A stretch of 57,853 nucleotides of DNA from an uncultured Gammaproteobacteria bacterium. GTDB lineage: Bacteria; Patescibacteriota; Microgenomatia; Daviesbacterales; UBA10151. Position 1 is the stretch's first letter; the number at the start of each line of letters is the position of its first letter. The notes beneath the pieces are model-generated. The model did no database searches, had not been told where the DNA came from, and worked only from the letters and a program-made list of their open reading frames with translations. Where the stretch lies: NCBI GenBank assembly GCA_964406775.1, contig CAYOSW010000006.1:1-57853 (forward strand), written 5' to 3'. Shown in pieces: positions 1,565-6,906 of this stretch. A program made the translations under genes and the position numbers.

Positions 1565-2956
1565 CTAGCTCTTAAAAATAGTCTCTGCCGGTTCGTTCGG
1601 AAAAGCCTGAATTGCAACCGGCTCCAAGAGCTTCGCTCCGCCCTCAGGTTTATAATGATATTTTTCAGCCTCTTGTAACACCTCGGGAGTTGCCACCGGT
1701 AGGGTGAATGAGAAAGTTGCCCCCTTATTTTCCCCGTCGGATTTAACCCAAATTTTCCCCTTCATAAGCTCAACCAGGCTTTTACAAATATAAAGCCCGA
1801 GCCCCGTTCCTCCGGTTGATGAAGCAGCTATATATGAATTATCCAGCCGGGAGAACTTCCTGAACAATCTCGGAACATCGGTAGCGGAAATCCCCACCCC
1901 ATTATCCTGAATGGAAATTTCTACAAAATTTCCGTCATTGAAATAAGTAAGGCTTATTGCTCCGTTTTGAGGCACAAATTTAAGCGAATTACCCAAAAGA
2001 TTCAGCAAAATCTGGTTAAATTTATTTGGATCTGCAAACACTTTCGGCATGCTTACCGCTGTATTTGTAATATGCAAAGCTTTTTATTTCGATTTAGCAT
2101 CAATCTCGACTAAAACTTCACCGACTAAATTTTGGAGATCAAACGCCTGCGGAGTAATTTCAATCCTGCCGGATTCAATTCTTGAAACGTTTAACATATC
2201 GTTAACTAAGTTAATAAGCCGTTCGGTTGAAACCAGGGTCCTTTGTAGATATTTCTTTAGCTTATCCGATAAGGGAACATCGGCCCGGTTTAACGCCATC
2301 CAGGCATATGAGCGGATGGCAGTCATCGGTGTACGCAGTTCGTGAGAAGCAATCGATACAAAATCATCCTTTAGTTTATCCAACTGATGTAGCTTGGAGT
2401 TCATCTTGTATACTTCCTCAGTCACTTTGGATAACGTAATTTCTGTATCGTGGATCTTAAATGCAAAGTTGATCAGACTTGTAATAAGCATCGCCAATTC
2501 TTTTTCCTCCTCAGTCAAAGCTAAAGCCTCTCTTTTTGTACCCATTGTTAGTACACCGATCAGATTATTTGCCCGCATAACCGGACACAAAACAAGTGAC
2601 TTAATCTGGGGCATCGGTTTAACCAGAAGACTCATATCCTCGGTTACAAAAATCCTTCCCCAAAGAAGTTCTTTTTCCCAGTCATTATGGTTGTCCAGAA
2701 GCAAATCTATTCTTATAACGGTCGGAGGCAAATCAACTTGGGTGGTTAAATAACTTGAATCGGCAAAATAAGATTGGCTTATTTTCGCACCACCCTCAAC
2801 AAAAACCACATCAACAAATTCGTAAGTTATTCCAATCGAGAGAAGCTGAAGTAAAATTTGCGGGAGTATATAATTGAAGACTGATTTTGAATCTTCGGAC
2901 GCCATCAAAATCTGCTGAAGCCTTTGATATGCATTAACAGACGCGGATGAGAGCAT
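1565..2956 (-). pseudogene. GAF-like + HisKA + HATPase_c sensor histidine kinase split by an in-frame TAA at 2084-2086
   Basis: H-box ASHELRTPMT lies in 2084..2956; N/G boxes (NLLGNSLKF, DNGVG, GGTGLGL) lie in 1565..2077. Same frame: DAKSK-TAA-KALHIT. Confidence 0.88.
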
Positions 2957-2962
2957 AGGCTT

Positions 2963-2968
2963 ATGATA
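2963..2968 (-). promoter_or_regulatory. Extended -10 (TG-c-TATCAT) 6 nt upstream of the kinase ATG
   Basis: Minus strand TTAAAC-17-TATCAT-6-ATG. Confidence 0.45.
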
Positions 2969-2980
2969 GCACTTTCGCGT

Positions 2981-3256
2981 CTAGTGTTTAAGAATATCCG
3001 GGATATCAGTTTGTGGAATTTTTTCAGAGAACTGATCGAAAGCATCCCTGCAAACCTGAATCGAGGCTTGACCGAAAAGCTTCTCAAACTGCCTAACTAA
3101 ATTCTCAAGAACCTGCCTTTTATTTCCGGTTATTTTTACGCTATCCCCTGCTATTGCGAGCCCGCTTACCTTTTTTGCTTGGTCGAGAGCAATCGGTCCG
3201 ATGATCGCTTGCTGTTCCTTAATTATTTTGCTGGCTGCCTGGGCAACAGGGTCCAT
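2981..3256 (-). CDS. Small conserved-looking helical protein (91 aa) in the two-component operon
   Basis: Clean ORF 2 nt after the 7TM gene stop; IIKEQ..IIGP.A...AKKV..LFGQAS..VC pattern. Confidence 0.8.
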   Translation of the reverse strand: MDPVAQAASKIIKEQQAIIGPIALDQAKKVSGLAIAGDSVKITGNKRQVLENLVRQFEKLFGQASIQVCRDAFDQFSEKIPQTDIPDILKH

Positions 3257-3258
3257 TT

Positions 3259-4086
3259 TTAATTATCTTTTAGCTGCTCGTACACCGCATTGAAATTTAT
3301 CAATGCAAATGTCATAACAAAGTAAGAGATTAGATAAATGAGATCGTTAACTCCGCTATCAGACCACGTCCCCCTAGATGTCTGATAAAGAAAAGTATAA
3401 TCAGCTAAGAACTGTACAAGAAGCGCAAATATTACAAATAATATTTTGCTTTTCATAATTCCGCCTAAAACACCCTTGGATAATATGTAAGTACTTATGC
3501 CTAAAGATATATAAATTGCGGCTCCCAATGGATATCCGAAATCTAAAAATACCTTGACCGGATTCGACCAATCAAAAGTATATTCCTGTAAAAATAGATA
3601 GTACCCTAGCCCAAGCAAAGCAAAAGTCACAATAGAAGCAGGCACTATTCGCTTTATCGATTTTATGTACAATCCAACCCCCGAAGCTTTGGCTAAGAAA
3701 AGAATCCCTAGACAATAAAACGGAATCGTCCCGAAAAATCCGACATCACCAAGTGAAGGATAGTCCGCTGTTTGAAGATTTTTCACAATGTAATAGTAAG
3801 AATACGTCAGCTGACCAAATTCCTGTAGCAATAGACCGATCGAAAACATAACAAGCGACTTACCAAGGACACTTTTTATACCACCCCACTTCTGAGCCAC
3901 CAATATCCCACAATACGCACCCCATAAAGCCGTCAGCCCATACAATGTGCTGAATGTGTAGATCTGATGGTGATGATTATCCTGTCCCGCAAAAAAATTT
4001 TGAAATACTATCCAATAAACCACAAAAAATGCAAAGATAAAAATCGCCCCGAATTTCAATAGATTAGAATTAATTTTTTTAATCAT
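3259..4086 (-). CDS. Stand-alone 7-TM membrane sensor-like protein
   Basis: About 7 hydrophobic segments; YPSLGDVGFF motif of the type seen in membrane sensor domains N-terminal to kinases/GGDEF proteins; no catalytic domain. Confidence 0.7.
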   Translation of the reverse strand: MIKKINSNLLKFGAIFIFAFFVVYWIVFQNFFAGQDNHHHQIYTFSTLYGLTALWGAYCGILVAQKWGGIKSVLGKSLVMFSIGLLLQEFGQLTYSYYYIVKNLQTADYPSLGDVGFFGTIPFYCLGILFLAKASGVGLYIKSIKRIVPASIVTFALLGLGYYLFLQEYTFDWSNPVKVFLDFGYPLGAAIYISLGISTYILSKGVLGGIMKSKILFVIFALLVQFLADYTFLYQTSRGTWSDSGVNDLIYLISYFVMTFALINFNAVYEQLKDN

Positions 4087-4093
4087 CTATTTA

Positions 4094-4123
4094 AGATTAC
4101 GGCCAAGCCTCACAGAGTGTCAA
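4094..4123 (-). promoter_or_regulatory. Sigma70 promoter for the 7TM/kinase operon
   Basis: TTGACA-18-TAATCT-7-ATG. Confidence 0.7.
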
Positions 4124-4157
4124 GCGTTAAATAGTTATTGTAGAATTAGAGTTATAT

Positions 4158-5075
4158 ATGAGTAATCCTCTTTTTCCAATTTTTAAAAAACTTGAACTTT
4201 CCGATCAAAAAATTATTTCAGAGCATACTGAGAAATTTTTACCTTACTCTGATTTTGATTTTACAAGTCTTTGGAGCTATGATGTTGACGAAAAAGTAGA
4301 GTTTAGCTGGCTCAATACTAACCTTGTTGTAAGGTTTAGCGATTATCTTACCGGAGACCCTATTTACTCCTATCTAGGAAATTCGCAGATTAAAAATACC
4401 CTTGGCTCGCTTTTCGATTTTCTTAATAATCAAGGTCTTGAAGGAGAATTATCCTTAGTACCTGAAGATTCAGTTCAGCCATTATTAAATTCAAAAAACT
4501 CAGAATACAGACTTCAAGAGTTAGCTGATCAGAATGACTATATTATTCCACTCCAAGAATCCTCAGAGTTAAAAAATATTAATGATCATAAGGTTGAAGC
4601 CTACGAAAATTTTGTTAAATCAAATCCCGGATATAAAATTTTGGAGATTGATATCAGTAGCGAGAAAGTAAGAGAGGACATCTTGTCACTTTTCGATACC
4701 TGGGCAAAACAGAGAAATAAGTCCGGAGATGATGTCAGAGTAGAAAGAATGGCGGTTTTCCGCTTACTTAAAAATCATTCTTTGTTTAATTTAACAACAC
4801 TGGGTCTTTATATTGGCAATTCTCTGGTGGGCTATATTATTGATGAGAGAGTAAAAAAACCTTTCGTAATTGGCCATTTTATTAAAGCAAACTTTAATTA
4901 CCCTGGAGTTTATGAGGTTCTAAATAGAGAATCAGCAAAGAAGCATTTACTCGAAGAGTATAAATATATTAATATTGAACAAGATTTAGGCATTAAGGGT
5001 TTAAGAATTTCAAAAATGCAAAGAAGCCCTGTCTTTTTCTTGAAAAAATACTCAGTAATAAAATTAGCTAACTAA
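4158..5075 (+). CDS. DUF2156 / phosphatidylglycerol lysyltransferase C-terminal-like (double GNAT) protein
   Basis: YSDFDFTSLWSY, DYI, GHFIKAN..YPGVY, YINIEQDLGIKGLRISK motifs. Confidence 0.85.
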   Translation: MSNPLFPIFKKLELSDQKIISEHTEKFLPYSDFDFTSLWSYDVDEKVEFSWLNTNLVVRFSDYLTGDPIYSYLGNSQIKNTLGSLFDFLNNQGLEGELSLVPEDSVQPLLNSKNSEYRLQELADQNDYIIPLQESSELKNINDHKVEAYENFVKSNPGYKILEIDISSEKVREDILSLFDTWAKQRNKSGDDVRVERMAVFRLLKNHSLFNLTTLGLYIGNSLVGYIIDERVKKPFVIGHFIKANFNYPGVYEVLNRESAKKHLLEEYKYINIEQDLGIKGLRISKMQRSPVFFLKKYSVIKLAN

Positions 5076-5963
5076 AATAATTCCTACGAAAGCTATAATT
5101 CCAAATACTCCTTTTTTTAGAAAACCTTTAAAAGATATGTCTTCTTTAAATACTCCAGGCACTAGCAGAGATAGAATTATTCCGAGGATTATACCGAAAA
5201 ATATTTGCGTGCTTCCGAGAACGGATACTAAGGCAGCAGGGCCGATAGCAACTGCCAAATAAGTTAAAATCTTTCCTCCTAAAAATAAAGACTCATTAAT
5301 CATCACTAGTCCTAAAACAGACTGCTTAATTTTACTGAGAGTTTTCGTAAAAGCTTTTTTGATTTTCGGAATAAGAAGCAAAAGTATTATGCCTCCGATA
5401 AAAACTCCGAGACTTTCATAAGCGATCAAACTGCGGAATGATATTGAAGAAGAAGCATATTTGATAAAAATATAAGGCAACGCCCAGAGAATATCTGCGA
5501 CGAGCATATAAAAAATAGCATTTGATAGTTTAAATTTATTTTTTTCCTTTTTAAATGAAACAAACACTGAAGATAAGGTTAATAAAATAAATCCCACCAG
5601 CTGTTTGTTCGTTATTGTTTCTCCAAGGAAAAGATAGGAAAGCAAAAGGACAATCACCGGAACGATCTGGATCATTATTATGATCAGACTGGTTTCCTCT
5701 TTAATTAAAGCCTCCAGATATATCGAAAAAGCCCAGATTGTAAATACGCCGCTTAAAATAACTAGTAAAGCATCGGTAAGACCTAAAAACATTCCCCCGC
5801 TTAGGGACAGTACAATAAAAACAGGAAGTGCCAAGATTGCACTAAAGATCGGAAGCGCCCGGTAATCCGGAAACTTTGATTCAATCAGGTATTTATCGAG
5901 GAAAACATTAACCGCATAAACAAAAGGAGCGAGTAAAGCTAAAAAAACCCAATTCATCTCCAA
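5064..5963 (-). CDS. EamA/DMT-family transporter
   Basis: 10 TM in two EamA-like halves; ALVSVLGSTQ. Confidence 0.85.
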   Translation of the reverse strand: MEMNWVFLALLAPFVYAVNVFLDKYLIESKFPDYRALPIFSAILALPVFIVLSLSGGMFLGLTDALLVILSGVFTIWAFSIYLEALIKEETSLIIIMIQIVPVIVLLLSYLFLGETITNKQLVGFILLTLSSVFVSFKKEKNKFKLSNAIFYMLVADILWALPYIFIKYASSSISFRSLIAYESLGVFIGGIILLLLIPKIKKAFTKTLSKIKQSVLGLVMINESLFLGGKILTYLAVAIGPAALVSVLGSTQIFFGIILGIILSLLVPGVFKEDISFKGFLKKGVFGIIAFVGIILVS

Positions 5964-6448
5964 CCTTCAGATTGATAAACAGCCATCACTAAAACACTTG
6001 CCGGGTGCCCTTTTACCTGGTCTATGGAGACCTCCAGTTTCATTCTTTCTTCCTCAAAATTAATGCCCCTGAAAGTACACAAATCTTTAAGAGAATTTTT
6101 AATTCTAAAATGAAGCTCGGACTCAACAGCAACCCGCGTATCCCCTATTAAGTGGTGTTCGACAAACAATCCCCTGCCATCATCAAGCTGATACCAACCT
6201 ACCCCGGCTGCTATAAATTTACCTGCCTCATTGCTCCTCTCCTCTGCCATAACGCAATAAAGTCTGTGTCCCCACTCATTTTCGGGTGTTTCAAAACGCT
6301 CGGATTTATGAACTCTGGAGGCCGGAGGAATTACGGAAGATAATGTAATTAAGTTGTAGTTATATACACCTGCGTCTTTTAGTGCCGCATCGAATGCTGA
6401 AAGCGGTGTCGAAGCCTGACCCACACCTTTAACTATTTTTATATCCAC
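5954..6448 (-). CDS. pdaD: Pyruvoyl-dependent arginine decarboxylase
   Basis: LSAFDAALKDAGVYNYNLITLSSVIP with the Ser-Ser self-cleavage site; IAAGVGW; ASVLVMAVY. Confidence 0.88.
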   Translation of the reverse strand: MDIKIVKGVGQASTPLSAFDAALKDAGVYNYNLITLSSVIPPASRVHKSERFETPENEWGHRLYCVMAEERSNEAGKFIAAGVGWYQLDDGRGLFVEHHLIGDTRVAVESELHFRIKNSLKDLCTFRGINFEEERMKLEVSIDQVKGHPASVLVMAVYQSEGWR

Positions 6449-6454
6449 AGATAG

Positions 6455-6483
6455 ATATTACCTAAAGGCTCAATCAAAATCAA
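6455..6483 (-). promoter_or_regulatory. Sigma70 promoter, leaderless, for pdaD-EamA
   Basis: TTGATT-17-TAATAT-6-GTG. Confidence 0.6.
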
Positions 6484-6612
6484 TTTTGCTTTATGTCTAT
6501 TGATTCACTAGTATGGAAATGTCCCTTGCATTCGGTATAGGGATTTATAAGCGGATTGCGAAGATTTGATGTCCCACCTTGTCCTTAATTTATAAAGACC
6601 ACCAGGTAGTTT

Positions 6613-6906
6613 TTAGCCTCTTAAGTTCGGATAATGGGTCTGGATATAAGTCTCGGTCTCCAACCCTGAGCCAAGCCTTTCCCACTGACCAAAGGATGGA
6701 CAATAGTTCAGAGGATCCGGGTTTATACTACTCGGGGCATTATTTCCATCAATATTACAGACCAAGGGTCCATCTACCATAGGACTCGCGTATGAGATTG
6801 ACGCCATCGTGTATAAAGCTAGCAGTGCAGCTAATAAGGCTCTAGAACCAATCTTGGCTCTGCTACCGCTTTCTATAGAAAATCTTCTAGTCTCAACACG
6901 ATGCAT
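6613..6906 (-). CDS. Hypothetical secreted protein
   Basis: Hydrophobic signal-like stretch (ALLAALLALYTMASISYA); promoter TTGACA-16-TATACT-8-ATG upstream. Confidence 0.55.
   Translation of the reverse strand: MHRVETRRFSIESGSRAKIGSRALLAALLALYTMASISYASPMVDGPLVCNIDGNNAPSSINPDPLNYCPSFGQWERLGSGLETETYIQTHYPNLRG

Follow-up and report, generated by a model that had tools for sequence, protein, structure and literature searches.

In this study, we showed that the stand-alone DUF2156 acyltransferase gene of the window (the whole analysed stretch of 57,853 nucleotides) lies together with the genes of a pyruvoyl-dependent arginine decarboxylase (pdaD), an EamA carrier and a split sensor histidine kinase, in an arrangement that recurs in genomes of the same genus, in genomes of other families and in several CPR lineages far more often than expected by chance. 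The gene identities, the intact catalytic set of PdaD, the fold of the DUF2156 protein, the split architecture of the kinase, the conserved linkage, the swaps of the decarboxylase and the common history of DUF2156 and sensor are established. The module may act by N-acylation of agmatine, with EamA as the transporter and the kinase as the receptor, and we give this reading a probability of about 0.45. The earlier note had proposed that pdaD, EamA and DUF2156 form an undescribed amine or aminoacyl modification module. An amine module is still the best reading, but the trio is part of a larger unit with the sensor kinase, and pdaD is swappable within it. Among the literature on DUF2156 or 2HQY/BT_3689 no paper was found that describes such a module, and no paper was found that joins a pyruvoyl arginine decarboxylase with Patescibacteria or with EamA.

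Organization of the locus and the split sensor kinase

The pdaD gene (5954-6448, minus strand, GTG start) encodes a predicted pyruvoyl-dependent arginine decarboxylase proenzyme of 164 aa, which scored 104 bits with PF01862 (E 8e-30; cut-off 22.7), its residues 3-158 aligning with positions 5-160 of the 161 profile positions. By profile alignment, D20, N32, S37/S38 and E97 correspond to D35, N47, S52/S53 and E109 of the M. jannaschii enzyme (1N2M), and they were invariant or at least 90% conserved among 28 homologues. In the M. jannaschii enzyme the pyruvoyl group arises by self-cleavage at the serine pair S52/S53, and Asn47, Glu109 and Asp35 belong to the catalytic set; in PdaD this set is intact. 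The protein scored below the NCBIfam equivalog cut-offs (TIGR00286, 70.6 vs 106.95; NF009064, 60.5 vs 207), the alignments to both covering the N-terminal two-thirds only. Since PdaD represents a divergent CPR branch, we infer its arginine specificity, and agmatine is its most likely predicted product.

The eamA gene (minus strand, 5064-5957 with an ATG start and 297 aa, or 5064-5963 with a TTG start and 299 aa) encodes a predicted membrane carrier of the EamA/DMT family, which matched PF00892 (E 1.2e-16; 61.7 bits, cut-off 28.2), the first repeat alone passing in Pfam. A simple hydrophobicity scan revealed nine hydrophobic stretches, some probably double, corresponding to about 9-10 segments. 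EamA was the only family matched above cut-off (TIGR00950 and TIGR03340 scored below theirs), with no match to the APC superfamily; a role as arginine or agmatine carrier is plausible for such a protein. The stop codon of pdaD (TGA, 5954-5956) overlaps the ATG of eamA (5955-5957) as ATGA, which makes translational coupling plausible. While this overlap agrees with the earlier description of the two genes, the single promoter claimed along with it was not borne out, as a sigma-70 consensus scan of 2900-6700 found 10 sites, while shuffled sequences led us to expect 11.6. The operon-like overlap is the only indication that pdaD and eamA may be co-transcribed. The DUF2156 gene (4158-5075, plus strand) converges on eamA, and the stop codons at 5073-5075 and 5064-5066 confirmed the 12-bp overlap reported before. 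Between the DUF2156 gene and the divergent sensor operon, the ORF coordinates leave an intergenic region of 71 bp (4087-4157), where the same scan placed one promoter-like site (4117-4146, plus strand), at chance level.

The sensor operon lies on the minus strand. Its first gene (3259-4086) encodes an 8-helix membrane protein of 275 aa, which had no match in Pfam or NCBIfam and belongs to a family with 2892 representatives. The gene of a 91-aa linker protein, s92 (2981-3256), begins 2 nt past the end of the sensor gene and is followed by a GAF-HisKA-HATPase histidine kinase gene (1565-2956), whose product has no TM segment, and by the gene of a receiver-only response regulator of 131 aa (1128-1523). 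The kinase gene is interrupted by an in-frame TAA (2084-2086); HisKA and a weak GAF were detected in 2084-2956, the TAA was confirmed by direct reading, both parts share one frame, and the related kinases are 450-470 aa long and carry HATPase_c. The regulator clusters with receiver-domain proteins, is 89% identical to genes of the loci L040 and L042 carrying PF00072 only, and has no output domain. Natural fusions of sensor and linker were found in many proteins of about 375 aa, and the 796-aa protein P0260 contains sensor, linker, GAF, HisKA and HATPase_c in one chain. These fusions show the 8-helix protein to be the transmembrane input domain of a two-component sensor kinase that is distributed here over three genes, for the sensor, the linker and the GAF kinase, with the receiver gene following. 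Further fusions of the sensor family involve NB-ARC STAND NTPases and a TrmB regulator.

The AF2 model of the sensor (pLDDT 94.6) is almost wholly membrane-embedded. The matches listed by VIA-align were 7TM receptors and rhodopsins with Z up to 12.2, a value usual for helical bundles, and Foldseek gave a best E of at least 0.013, with none below 0.001; the membrane/flippase domain of MprF was absent among the matches listed by both programs. A split-off HisKA_7TM domain (PF16927) was rejected as a sequence homologue of the sensor: in an hhalign comparison with the 7TM stretch of the pdaD-adjacent long kinases of another family (f28), the probability was 0.4%. The ESM feature search returned weak leads only (0.79).

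Subtype of the DUF2156 protein

The 305-aa DUF2156 protein matched PF09924 (E 5.5e-15; 55.7 bits, cut-off 27.5) and is a predicted double-GNAT acyltransferase of the BT_3689/2HQY subtype; with its degenerate inter-GNAT helix it belongs to what is here called type A. When its family profile was compared with the PDB, 2HQY was reached over the full length (E 1.1e-42, positions 8-296 on 4-292), and no MprF chain was among the matches up to E 1. With the AF2 model (pLDDT 96), Foldseek gave TM 0.84 and rmsd 2.9 for 2HQY, and TM of about 0.6 for the MprF C-domains and FemX. BT_3689 and its H. pylori homologue HPB8_1270 resemble the window's protein in length (about 305 aa), two-GNAT fold and absence of a membrane domain, although the identity to 2HQY is only 25%. 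BT_3689 was crystallised with acetyl-CoA, and HPB8_1270 behaves as an acetyltransferase and was implicated in lysine acetylation of RNase J (PMC10700544). No report was found in which a decarboxylase, EamA or a sensor kinase is linked with either of these two proteins.

In MprF and ErdS, a basic helix between the GNAT halves binds aminoacyl-tRNA (PMC7334510). The inter-GNAT helix of the window's protein contains three K/R and four D/E residues and a 3-residue deletion, and the clade of proteins about 50% identical to it, itself included, has 2-4 K/R, 1-4 D/E and a 3-residue deletion. In most relatives (type B) the helix is still basic, with 5-8 K/R, as it is in 2HQY. Transfer from tRNA is therefore doubtful for this copy, and the use of aminoacyl-tRNA by DUF2156, on which the earlier note had built, became a weak premise for a protein of the acetyl-CoA-binding 2HQY subtype without the basic helix. 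MprF/aaPGS, LysX and the fungal ErdS/ErgS, lipid aminoacyl transferases that depend on aminoacyl-tRNA, belong to PF09924 as well and have the double-GNAT fold and the conserved DLG..GLR..K motif of the C-terminal region in common with the window's protein, while it differs from them in its degenerate helix, a TM of only about 0.6 and the absence of a flippase/TM domain and of an aaRS fusion. No N-terminal multi-pass membrane domain and no hydrophobic segment were found in the protein. Among longer DUF2156 forms, searched for aaRS or TM fusions, a single GNAT fusion was found, which is weak evidence of absence.

These features bear on an alternative in which the locus would remodel envelope charge as a split MprF-like system, DUF2156 aminoacylating or acylating a membrane lipid, EamA flipping this lipid (as a lipid-linked sugar is flipped by the DMT-type ArnE/ArnF), the sensor kinase monitoring the membrane and the decarboxylase relieving acid or cation stress. 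The lipid aminoacyl transferases MprF and ErdS have DUF2156 as their catalytic domain (PMC7334510, PMC5898192), and the match to the MprF C-domain fold, the almost wholly membrane-embedded sensor and the basic helix kept by type B relatives are in line with such a role. However, the family profile reaches 2HQY and, up to E 1, no MprF chain, the window's DUF2156 has neither a TM segment nor the basic helix, and the repeated swaps of decarboxylase family and the methyltransferases in the slot are left without a reason. Envelope remodelling is thus considered unlikely.

Linkage across CPR genomes and the decarboxylase slot

Linkage was analysed in 401 genomes of the window's class, evenly drawn and unbiased, and in 75 loci centred on the sensor, which came from Microgenomatia, Saccharibacteria, Paceibacteria and Peribacteria. 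A 2HQY-like DUF2156 was present in 16 of the 401 genomes, and the 8-helix sensor adjoined it in 16/16, which makes the sensor its tightest partner. A pyruvoyl decarboxylase lay within about 1.2 kb of DUF2156 in 11 of the 16 loci (7 PvlArgDC and 4 AdoMetDC-like) and EamA was within the module in 14; none of the seven MprF-like DUF2156 genes in the same sample had a pyruvoyl decarboxylase nearby. The lack of DUF2156-pdaD linkage in other genomes had been set beforehand as a refuting result, and the linkage turned out to be clear. No decarboxylase was adjacent in the remaining 5/16 loci and none was detected anywhere in three of those genomes, so the role of agmatine as a local substrate cannot be obligate.

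The 75 loci, selected for resembling a sensor profile whose member sensors were for the most part linked to DUF2156, contained DUF2156 in 71, the linker in 60, EamA in 50, pdaD in 35 and an AdoMetDC-like gene in 17 cases. In 66 of them, 45 divergent and 21 co-directional, the gene immediately upstream of the sensor was DUF2156. Gene order and strand varied between loci with closeness retained, and EamA was sometimes on the opposite strand or inside a DUF2156-sensor operon without pdaD. In the loci without DUF2156, which have their own separate sensor clade, the slot was occupied by other amine modifiers, among them a methyltransferase of the NNMT/PNMT type, further methyltransferases and GNATs, or by an MFS carrier.

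The place of pdaD is taken by an AdoMetDC-like decarboxylase in some loci and is vacant in others. The AdoMetDC-like enzymes (about 134 aa, PF02675) and PvlArgDC are unrelated pyruvoyl decarboxylases occupying one slot, and both were present together in only one of the 75 loci. Parsimony on the DUF2156 and sensor trees gave at least 11 replacements of one by the other, including replacements between sister loci, and this repeated swap speaks for a common requirement for what the two enzymes produce. A sensor or DUF2156 clade tracking the decarboxylase type was looked for and rejected, as the labels were interspersed on the trees, which we read as interchangeability. According to Pfam, the loci with neither gene had no other decarboxylase, their neighbours being HD, CYTH, GNAT, DUF2238 or nothing. 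AdoMetDC homologues of CPR bacteria are documented arginine or ornithine decarboxylases (PMC10407285). Among them, SpeDA and SpeDC, which are neofunctionalised in CPR, are of the same family as the slot proteins and cluster with speE, hss, speY and casdh/casdc (PMC10407285), whereas the slot proteins occur with EamA, DUF2156 and the sensor kinase. No spermidine synthase was found in the genomes G270 and G365.

The organism had been described as having little metabolism, which needs a qualifier, since the window's genome contains an arginase/agmatinase-family gene (G000:C5:52683-53579) and ordinary putrescine synthesis is possible. With this gene present, pdaD could simply feed putrescine synthesis. 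In the corresponding alternative, a normal polyamine supply would lie next to a signalling unit unrelated to it, DUF2156 would work with the sensor kinase alone, and the decarboxylase would be just a frequent neighbour or a regulatory target. In accordance with this alternative, the arginase-family gene tracks pdaD within the genus (4/4 pdaD-bearing genomes, the window's and three congeners, vs 0/2 others), and 5 of the 16 unbiased loci do without a decarboxylase. Against it, the gene was found in 0/6 pdaD-bearing relatives outside the genus, and a search of the window's genome revealed no spermidine synthase, agmatine deiminase or AdoMetDC. Moreover, 11 of 16 adjacencies of 1.2 kb or less in genomes of about 1 Mb, and two analogous, mutually exclusive enzymes in one slot, would be difficult to account for if no pathway were shared. 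We therefore judge mere polyamine supply to be quite unlikely.

Shared history of enzyme and sensor and the proposed module

DUF2156 and the sensor share a history unlike that of the flanking genes. Their trees were mutually congruent and in conflict with those of the kinase, pdaD and EamA; AU tests gave p of 8e-8 and 2e-4 one way and 6e-54 and 2.5e-6 the other way, and the partial Mantel r between DUF2156 and sensor was 0.55 (p about 5e-4). Between loci of the same genus, identity was 77-82% for the kinase, 71-80% for the linker and 66-79% for pdaD, and fell to 37-41% for the sensor and 33-36% for DUF2156, the change being sharp where sensor and linker meet. Locus L043, with a distant backbone (kinase 42%), had a sensor 63% and a DUF2156 48% identical. 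In close pairs with unsaturated dS, dN/dS of DUF2156 was 0.03-0.15, which indicates purifying selection overall and contradicts positive selection; the big jumps in identity look like replacement and not fast drift. The shared history may reflect only the joint replacement of neighbours in one recombination event, and EamA and the decarboxylase were also swapped, independently.

A direct contact between DUF2156 and the sensor would explain their shared history as well, if DUF2156 acetylated or aminoacylated the sensor, the linker, the kinase or the regulator as a means of adaptation or tuning. The adjacency in 16/16 loci, the correlated histories, the acetyl-CoA in 2HQY and the RNase J acetylation implicating HPB8_1270 (PMC10700544) fit a protein acyltransferase, but the decarboxylase and EamA are left unexplained and we consider this role very unlikely. 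Least probable of all is acid resistance, in which EamA would swap arginine for agmatine, PdaD would consume protons and DUF2156 would be incidental: in Chlamydia the pyruvoyl enzyme AaxB works with the antiporter AaxC, and pdaD and eamA are plausibly coupled in the window, but EamA is a DMT carrier and no APC antiporter, is absent from one third of the sensor-centred loci, is sometimes found on the opposite strand or in a DUF2156-sensor operon that has no pdaD, and is less tightly conserved than DUF2156.

In the reading we prefer, N-acylation of agmatine, the pyruvoyl decarboxylase (here PvlArgDC) would produce an amine, most likely agmatine, and the BT_3689-type DUF2156 would N-acylate it with acetyl- or acyl-CoA as donor or, less likely for this copy, with aminoacyl-tRNA. 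EamA would carry the product out, or the precursor in, and the sensor kinase, formed by the 8-helix sensor, the 91-aa linker, the GAF kinase and the receiver-only regulator, would perceive the product or a related cue. We infer the acceptor, the donor, the chemistry, the direction of transport and the ligand of the sensor. The regulator without an output domain and the in-frame stop of the window's kinase count against the model. The production of N-acetylagmatine with acetyl-CoA is established for Drosophila AgmNAT (PMC5647378). AgmNAT, SpeG and PaiA share with the proposed step the GNAT chemistry on agmatine or polyamines, and PaiA was a weak hit of the DUF2156 family profile; they differ from DUF2156 in being single-GNAT proteins, related at superfamily level only, and in having no decarboxylase-carrier-sensor linkage.

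The module resembles AaxB/AaxC (Chlamydia) and AdiA/AdiC (E. coli), which each unite an arginine decarboxylase and an Arg/agmatine antiporter, in the operon-like pairing of a pyruvoyl arginine decarboxylase (AaxB family) with a membrane carrier, but its carrier is of the EamA/DMT type and not APC, an acyltransferase and a sensor kinase are added, and the decarboxylase is swappable. As in ComQXP of Bacillus, staphylococcal agr and LuxI/LuxR, an enzyme that would make or modify a signal stands beside the membrane input of a kinase, and the enzyme varies in step with the sensor, with a conserved kinase core and regulator. Unlike in these three systems there is no peptide precursor, all protein families differ, the presumed signal would be an amine derivative, EamA and the decarboxylase are swapped too, and export, autoinduction and density dependence are hypothetical. 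An extension to small-molecule signalling from cell to cell or from epibiont to host is tentative and somewhat unlikely; here the decarboxylase and the double-GNAT enzyme would make an acylated agmatine-type signal, EamA would export it, and the 7TM-like split sensor would receive it, with exchangeable, pherotype-like enzyme-sensor types.

CPR bacteria (Patescibacteria) make up a large share of bacterial diversity and are attached to other cells or depend on them for living, and to our knowledge almost nothing is known about their sensing and signalling. The compact module of five to seven genes, found from Microgenomatia to Saccharibacteria and Paceibacteria, brings the production of an amine together with an acyltransferase of an orphan subtype, a carrier and a membrane sensor domain of a new type (about 2900 representatives), so that three families of unknown function gain a concrete, testable hypothesis. 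The stand-alone DUF2156 proteins of the BT_3689 type gain a genomic context, which calls for caution in annotating them as lysyl-phosphatidylglycerol synthases, and the AdoMetDC-derived decarboxylases gain a second genomic setting. Should the product prove to be sensed as a signal, we know of no earlier proposal for CPR bacteria of signalling by a small molecule of their own making.

Linkage of pdaD, EamA and DUF2156

The window genome (G000) is a CPR/Patescibacteria assembly of 1.34 Mb in 65 contigs with a completeness score of 100%. ORF and Pfam analysis confirmed the gene positions of the earlier note, with DUF2156 at 4158-5075 (+; 305 aa; PF09924, E 5.5e-15), EamA at 5064-5963 (-; PF00892, E 1.2e-16; start TTG at 5963 or ATG at 5957) and pdaD at 5954-6448 (-; 164 aa; PF01862, E 8e-30). 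The 12-bp convergent overlap of DUF2156 and EamA and the overlap of pdaD and EamA, in which the stop codon of pdaD and the ATG start of EamA share the sequence ATGA, were also found. The single promoter claimed for pdaD and EamA was not borne out, the consensus scan being at chance level (10 sites, 11.6 expected). The GC content was lower in sensor (0.37), DUF2156 (0.32) and EamA (0.35), at 3259-5957, and higher in pdaD (0.43), linker (0.45) and kinase (0.40-0.43), which fits a replaced middle of the locus comprising sensor, DUF2156 and EamA.

Residues D20, N32, S37/S38 and E97 of PdaD align to D35, N47, S52/S53 and E109 of the M. jannaschii enzyme, the residues known to be important there, so that all of these are kept; they are invariant or nearly so among 28 relatives. 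PdaD forms a divergent branch and scores under the NCBIfam equivalog cut-offs. EamA is an ordinary DMT carrier, for which NCBIfam profile comparison found no closer informative family. In G001, a sister species of the same genus, the pdaD orthologue (L003 / L013:5470-5961) contains an in-frame TAA and the decarboxylase may be broken, while the locus still keeps EamA, DUF2156 and the sensor operon.

The linkage of DUF2156 with pdaD, proposed earlier, is present beyond the window genome. Among 60 relatives, pdaD was detected in nine genomes other than that of the window, and the full trio recurred in two same-genus genomes and one of another genus. Of 401 class genomes sampled evenly, 21 contained pdaD, 25 PF09924 and 8 both; in seven of these 8, from five taxonomic families, the two lie within 1.2 kb, with proximity kept and order and strand variable. 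Metagenomic DUF2156 homologues of ~50% identity have the same arrangement as the window. In this unbiased sample, stand-alone BT_3689-type (2HQY-like) DUF2156 occurred in 16 genomes, with the sensor gene beside it in 16/16, EamA in 14/16 and a pyruvoyl decarboxylase within ~1.2 kb in 11/16; the arrangement was found in 0/7 genomes with the MprF-like PF09924 subtype.

Sensor and split kinase

Upstream of DUF2156 lies a 275-aa, 8-helix membrane protein without Pfam family, named sensor (3259-4086, -), tightly followed by a 91-aa linker protein (2981-3256, -), a TM-less GAF-HisKA-HATPase kinase (1565-2956, -) and a receiver-only regulator (1128-1523, -). With the sensor profile, 2892 cluster representatives were retrieved (E up to 0.001). 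Many proteins of ~375 aa are fused forms of sensor and linker, and one 796-aa polypeptide (P0260) unites sensor, linker and GAF kinase. Because such fused forms exist, the 8-helix protein is the input domain of a sensor kinase, split over three genes in the window. The structure predicted for this protein (pLDDT 94.6) is no closer to 7TM receptors than is common for helical bundles, and no profile similarity to HisKA_7TM was found. The window kinase carries an in-frame TAA at 2084-2086, between HisKA and HATPase_c, while its relatives are single ORFs of 450-470 aa; the stop is due either to an assembly error or to a signalling arm that is decaying in G000.

A sensor-profile search of species-representative genomes gave 80 loci, 75 with a stand-alone sensor, a set biased towards query-like sensors, from Davies-, Levy-, Roizman-, Woese-, Gottesman-, Uhr-, Nomura-, Andersen- and Staskawiczbacteria, Saccharibacteria and Peribacteria. 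DUF2156 was at most two genes away in 71 of the 75 and directly adjacent in 66 (45 divergent, 21 co-directional); EamA was present in 50, the linker in 60 and the kinase in 60.

Further sensor fusions are to NB-ARC STAND NTPases and, once, to a TrmB regulator. L013:2985-5318 and L014:3638-5956 encode an N-terminal NB-ARC/STAND NTPase with a C-terminal sensor-like 8-helix domain, and 676-684-aa ORFs of this type also occur in L050, L051, L056 and L080; these proteins directly adjoin pdaD or DUF2156 and may give sensors of this kind a second output that does not involve a kinase. P0198, a metagenomic protein of 806 aa, joins a TrmB-type winged-helix regulator to two sensor-domain copies and, with the same input domain, would act as a one-component transcription factor in the membrane. 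In 7-14 loci, for example L095:2992-4050, L103:1304-3001 and L116:4148-4648, genes of a type IV pilus (PilB-like T2SSE ATPase, PilC-like T2SSF, N_methyl-motif pilin) are found upstream of the sensor at a distance of 4-6 genes; their recurrence, together with the receiver-only regulators, suggests pili as a possible output.

Decarboxylase replacement and shared history of DUF2156 and sensor

Where pdaD is missing, its slot often holds a ~134-aa AdoMetDC-family protein (PF02675), a pyruvoyl enzyme of no sequence relation to PvlArgDC. Beside the module, pdaD was found in 35 of the 75 sensor loci and the AdoMetDC-like gene in 17, with either in 51 and both in 1; one or the other was present in 47 of 59 loci with sufficient upstream sequence. 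On both the DUF2156 tree and the sensor tree, loci with pdaD and loci with the AdoMetDC-like gene are intermixed, some sister loci differ, and parsimony requires at least 11 changes. Published work established that CPR AdoMetDC homologues decarboxylate arginine or ornithine (PMC10407285), and spermidine synthase was absent in 2 of 4 genomes checked. Since an analogous enzyme repeatedly replaces pdaD, the module would appear to need a decarboxylase product, and this is the strongest argument for such a need.

In loci lacking DUF2156, the gap between pdaD and sensor holds one or more of an NNMT/PNMT-type amine methyltransferase, GNATs, other methyltransferases, or an MFS carrier accompanied by small uncharacterized proteins. 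In three of these loci the sensors group together in a separate clade (100% SH-aLRT), and one of the three belongs to a same-genus genome with a kinase 82% identical to that of the window. In family f28 (L028-L038), pdaD is followed downstream by an MFS carrier, small uncharacterized proteins (~180-255 aa) and a long kinase whose own input is HisKA_7TM-GAF; this decarboxylase-carrier-kinase neighbourhood is of different build and lacks DUF2156.

Identities to the window copies were compared between same-genus loci (L012, L013, L016; L012 lacks EamA and DUF2156, for which the ranges are from L013 and L016) and L043, a distant backbone. They were 78-82% and 42% for the kinase, 71-78% and 50% for the linker, 66-79% and 52% for PdaD and 58-62% and 23% for EamA, while the sensor gave 40-41% and 63% and DUF2156 33-36% and 48%, respectively; the drop stops sharply at the sensor/linker junction. 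Sensor and DUF2156 trees recovered the same two clades, while kinase, pdaD and EamA trees grouped the loci otherwise, and AU tests rejected each grouping on the other gene set (p 8e-8 and 2e-4; p 6e-54 and 2.5e-6). Across 49 loci, the DUF2156-sensor distance correlation was 0.62, and 0.55 as partial correlation given kinase and linker (Mantel p ~5e-4); correlations with kinase or linker were 0.35-0.44. These comparisons indicate that DUF2156 and the sensor have a common history, with three caveats: as the genes adjoin, one replacement event would carry both; EamA and the decarboxylase were replaced independently at other loci; and related loci are not independent observations. In L079 and L085, each compared with L090, EamA lies on the opposite strand; because its identity falls to 31-32% in loci otherwise 86-97% identical, the carrier gene is also swapped alone.

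Candidate acyl donors and proposed function

DUF2156 is confidently predicted to fold as a tandem GNAT (pLDDT 96) and evolves under purifying selection (dN/dS 0.03-0.15). Among relatives of solved structure, the stand-alone Bacteroides protein BT_3689 (PDB 2HQY; profile E 1e-42, TM 0.84) is by far the nearest, while MprF C-domains and FemX reach a TM of only ~0.6 and the family profile retrieved no MprF chain from the PDB at E up to 1. Acetyl-CoA is present in 2HQY, and the H. pylori homologue HPB8_1270 participates in lysine acetylation (PMC10700544); protein acylation is a rival reading of the locus. In MprF and ErdS the helix between the GNAT halves is basic and required for aminoacyl-tRNA (PMC7334510). 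This helix is basic in most DUF2156 relatives (5-8 K/R), while the window protein and its ~50%-identical clade have 2-4 K/R, 1-4 D/E and a 3-residue deletion. The earlier premise that DUF2156 uses aminoacyl-tRNA is therefore weak for the window copy, although aminoacyl-tRNA may be a donor, especially in the basic-helix type. For the window copy, its kinship with 2HQY and the loss of the basic helix favour acetyl- or acyl-CoA as the probable donor. P0348 (612 aa), the only longer relative found, fuses a 2HQY-like DUF2156 to a canonical acetyl-CoA-type GNAT. In Uhrbacteria and relatives (L063, L073, L083, L089, L110, L119), DUF2156-sensor is directly followed by genes for arginyl- and valyl-tRNA synthetases, which may reflect synteny within the lineage or hint at an Arg-tRNA donor in basic-helix types.

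Ordinary polyamine supply next to a signalling unit is another rival. G000 has four canonical GNATs and one arginase/agmatinase-family gene (C5:52683-53579, 298 aa); agmatine deiminase, spermidine synthase, arginine deiminase, AdoMetDC and acetate kinase were searched for in this genome and not found. Putrescine synthesis is possible in G000 but does not generally accompany pdaD in its group, because the arginase-family gene tracks pdaD within the genus only: there it occurs only in the same four genomes that have pdaD, and outside the genus in 0 of 6 pdaD-bearing relatives.

Other rivals would assign the locus to lipid remodelling or to Aax-like acid resistance. A reading as amine acylation, transport and sensing would account for every part, and we infer its functional steps from comparative genomics. 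The decarboxylase would provide an amine, in the window agmatine, which the double-GNAT DUF2156 would N-acylate; EamA would transport the product or a precursor, and the adjoining sensor kinase would perceive the product or a related cue.

A literature search found no paper describing a decarboxylase-DUF2156-EamA-sensor kinase module; its parts are of known superfamilies, with a sensor domain without Pfam model, and it is their combination that was not found described. The nearest analogies of the module, with other chemistry and other protein families, are ComQXP and agr, as polymorphic synthase-receptor loci.
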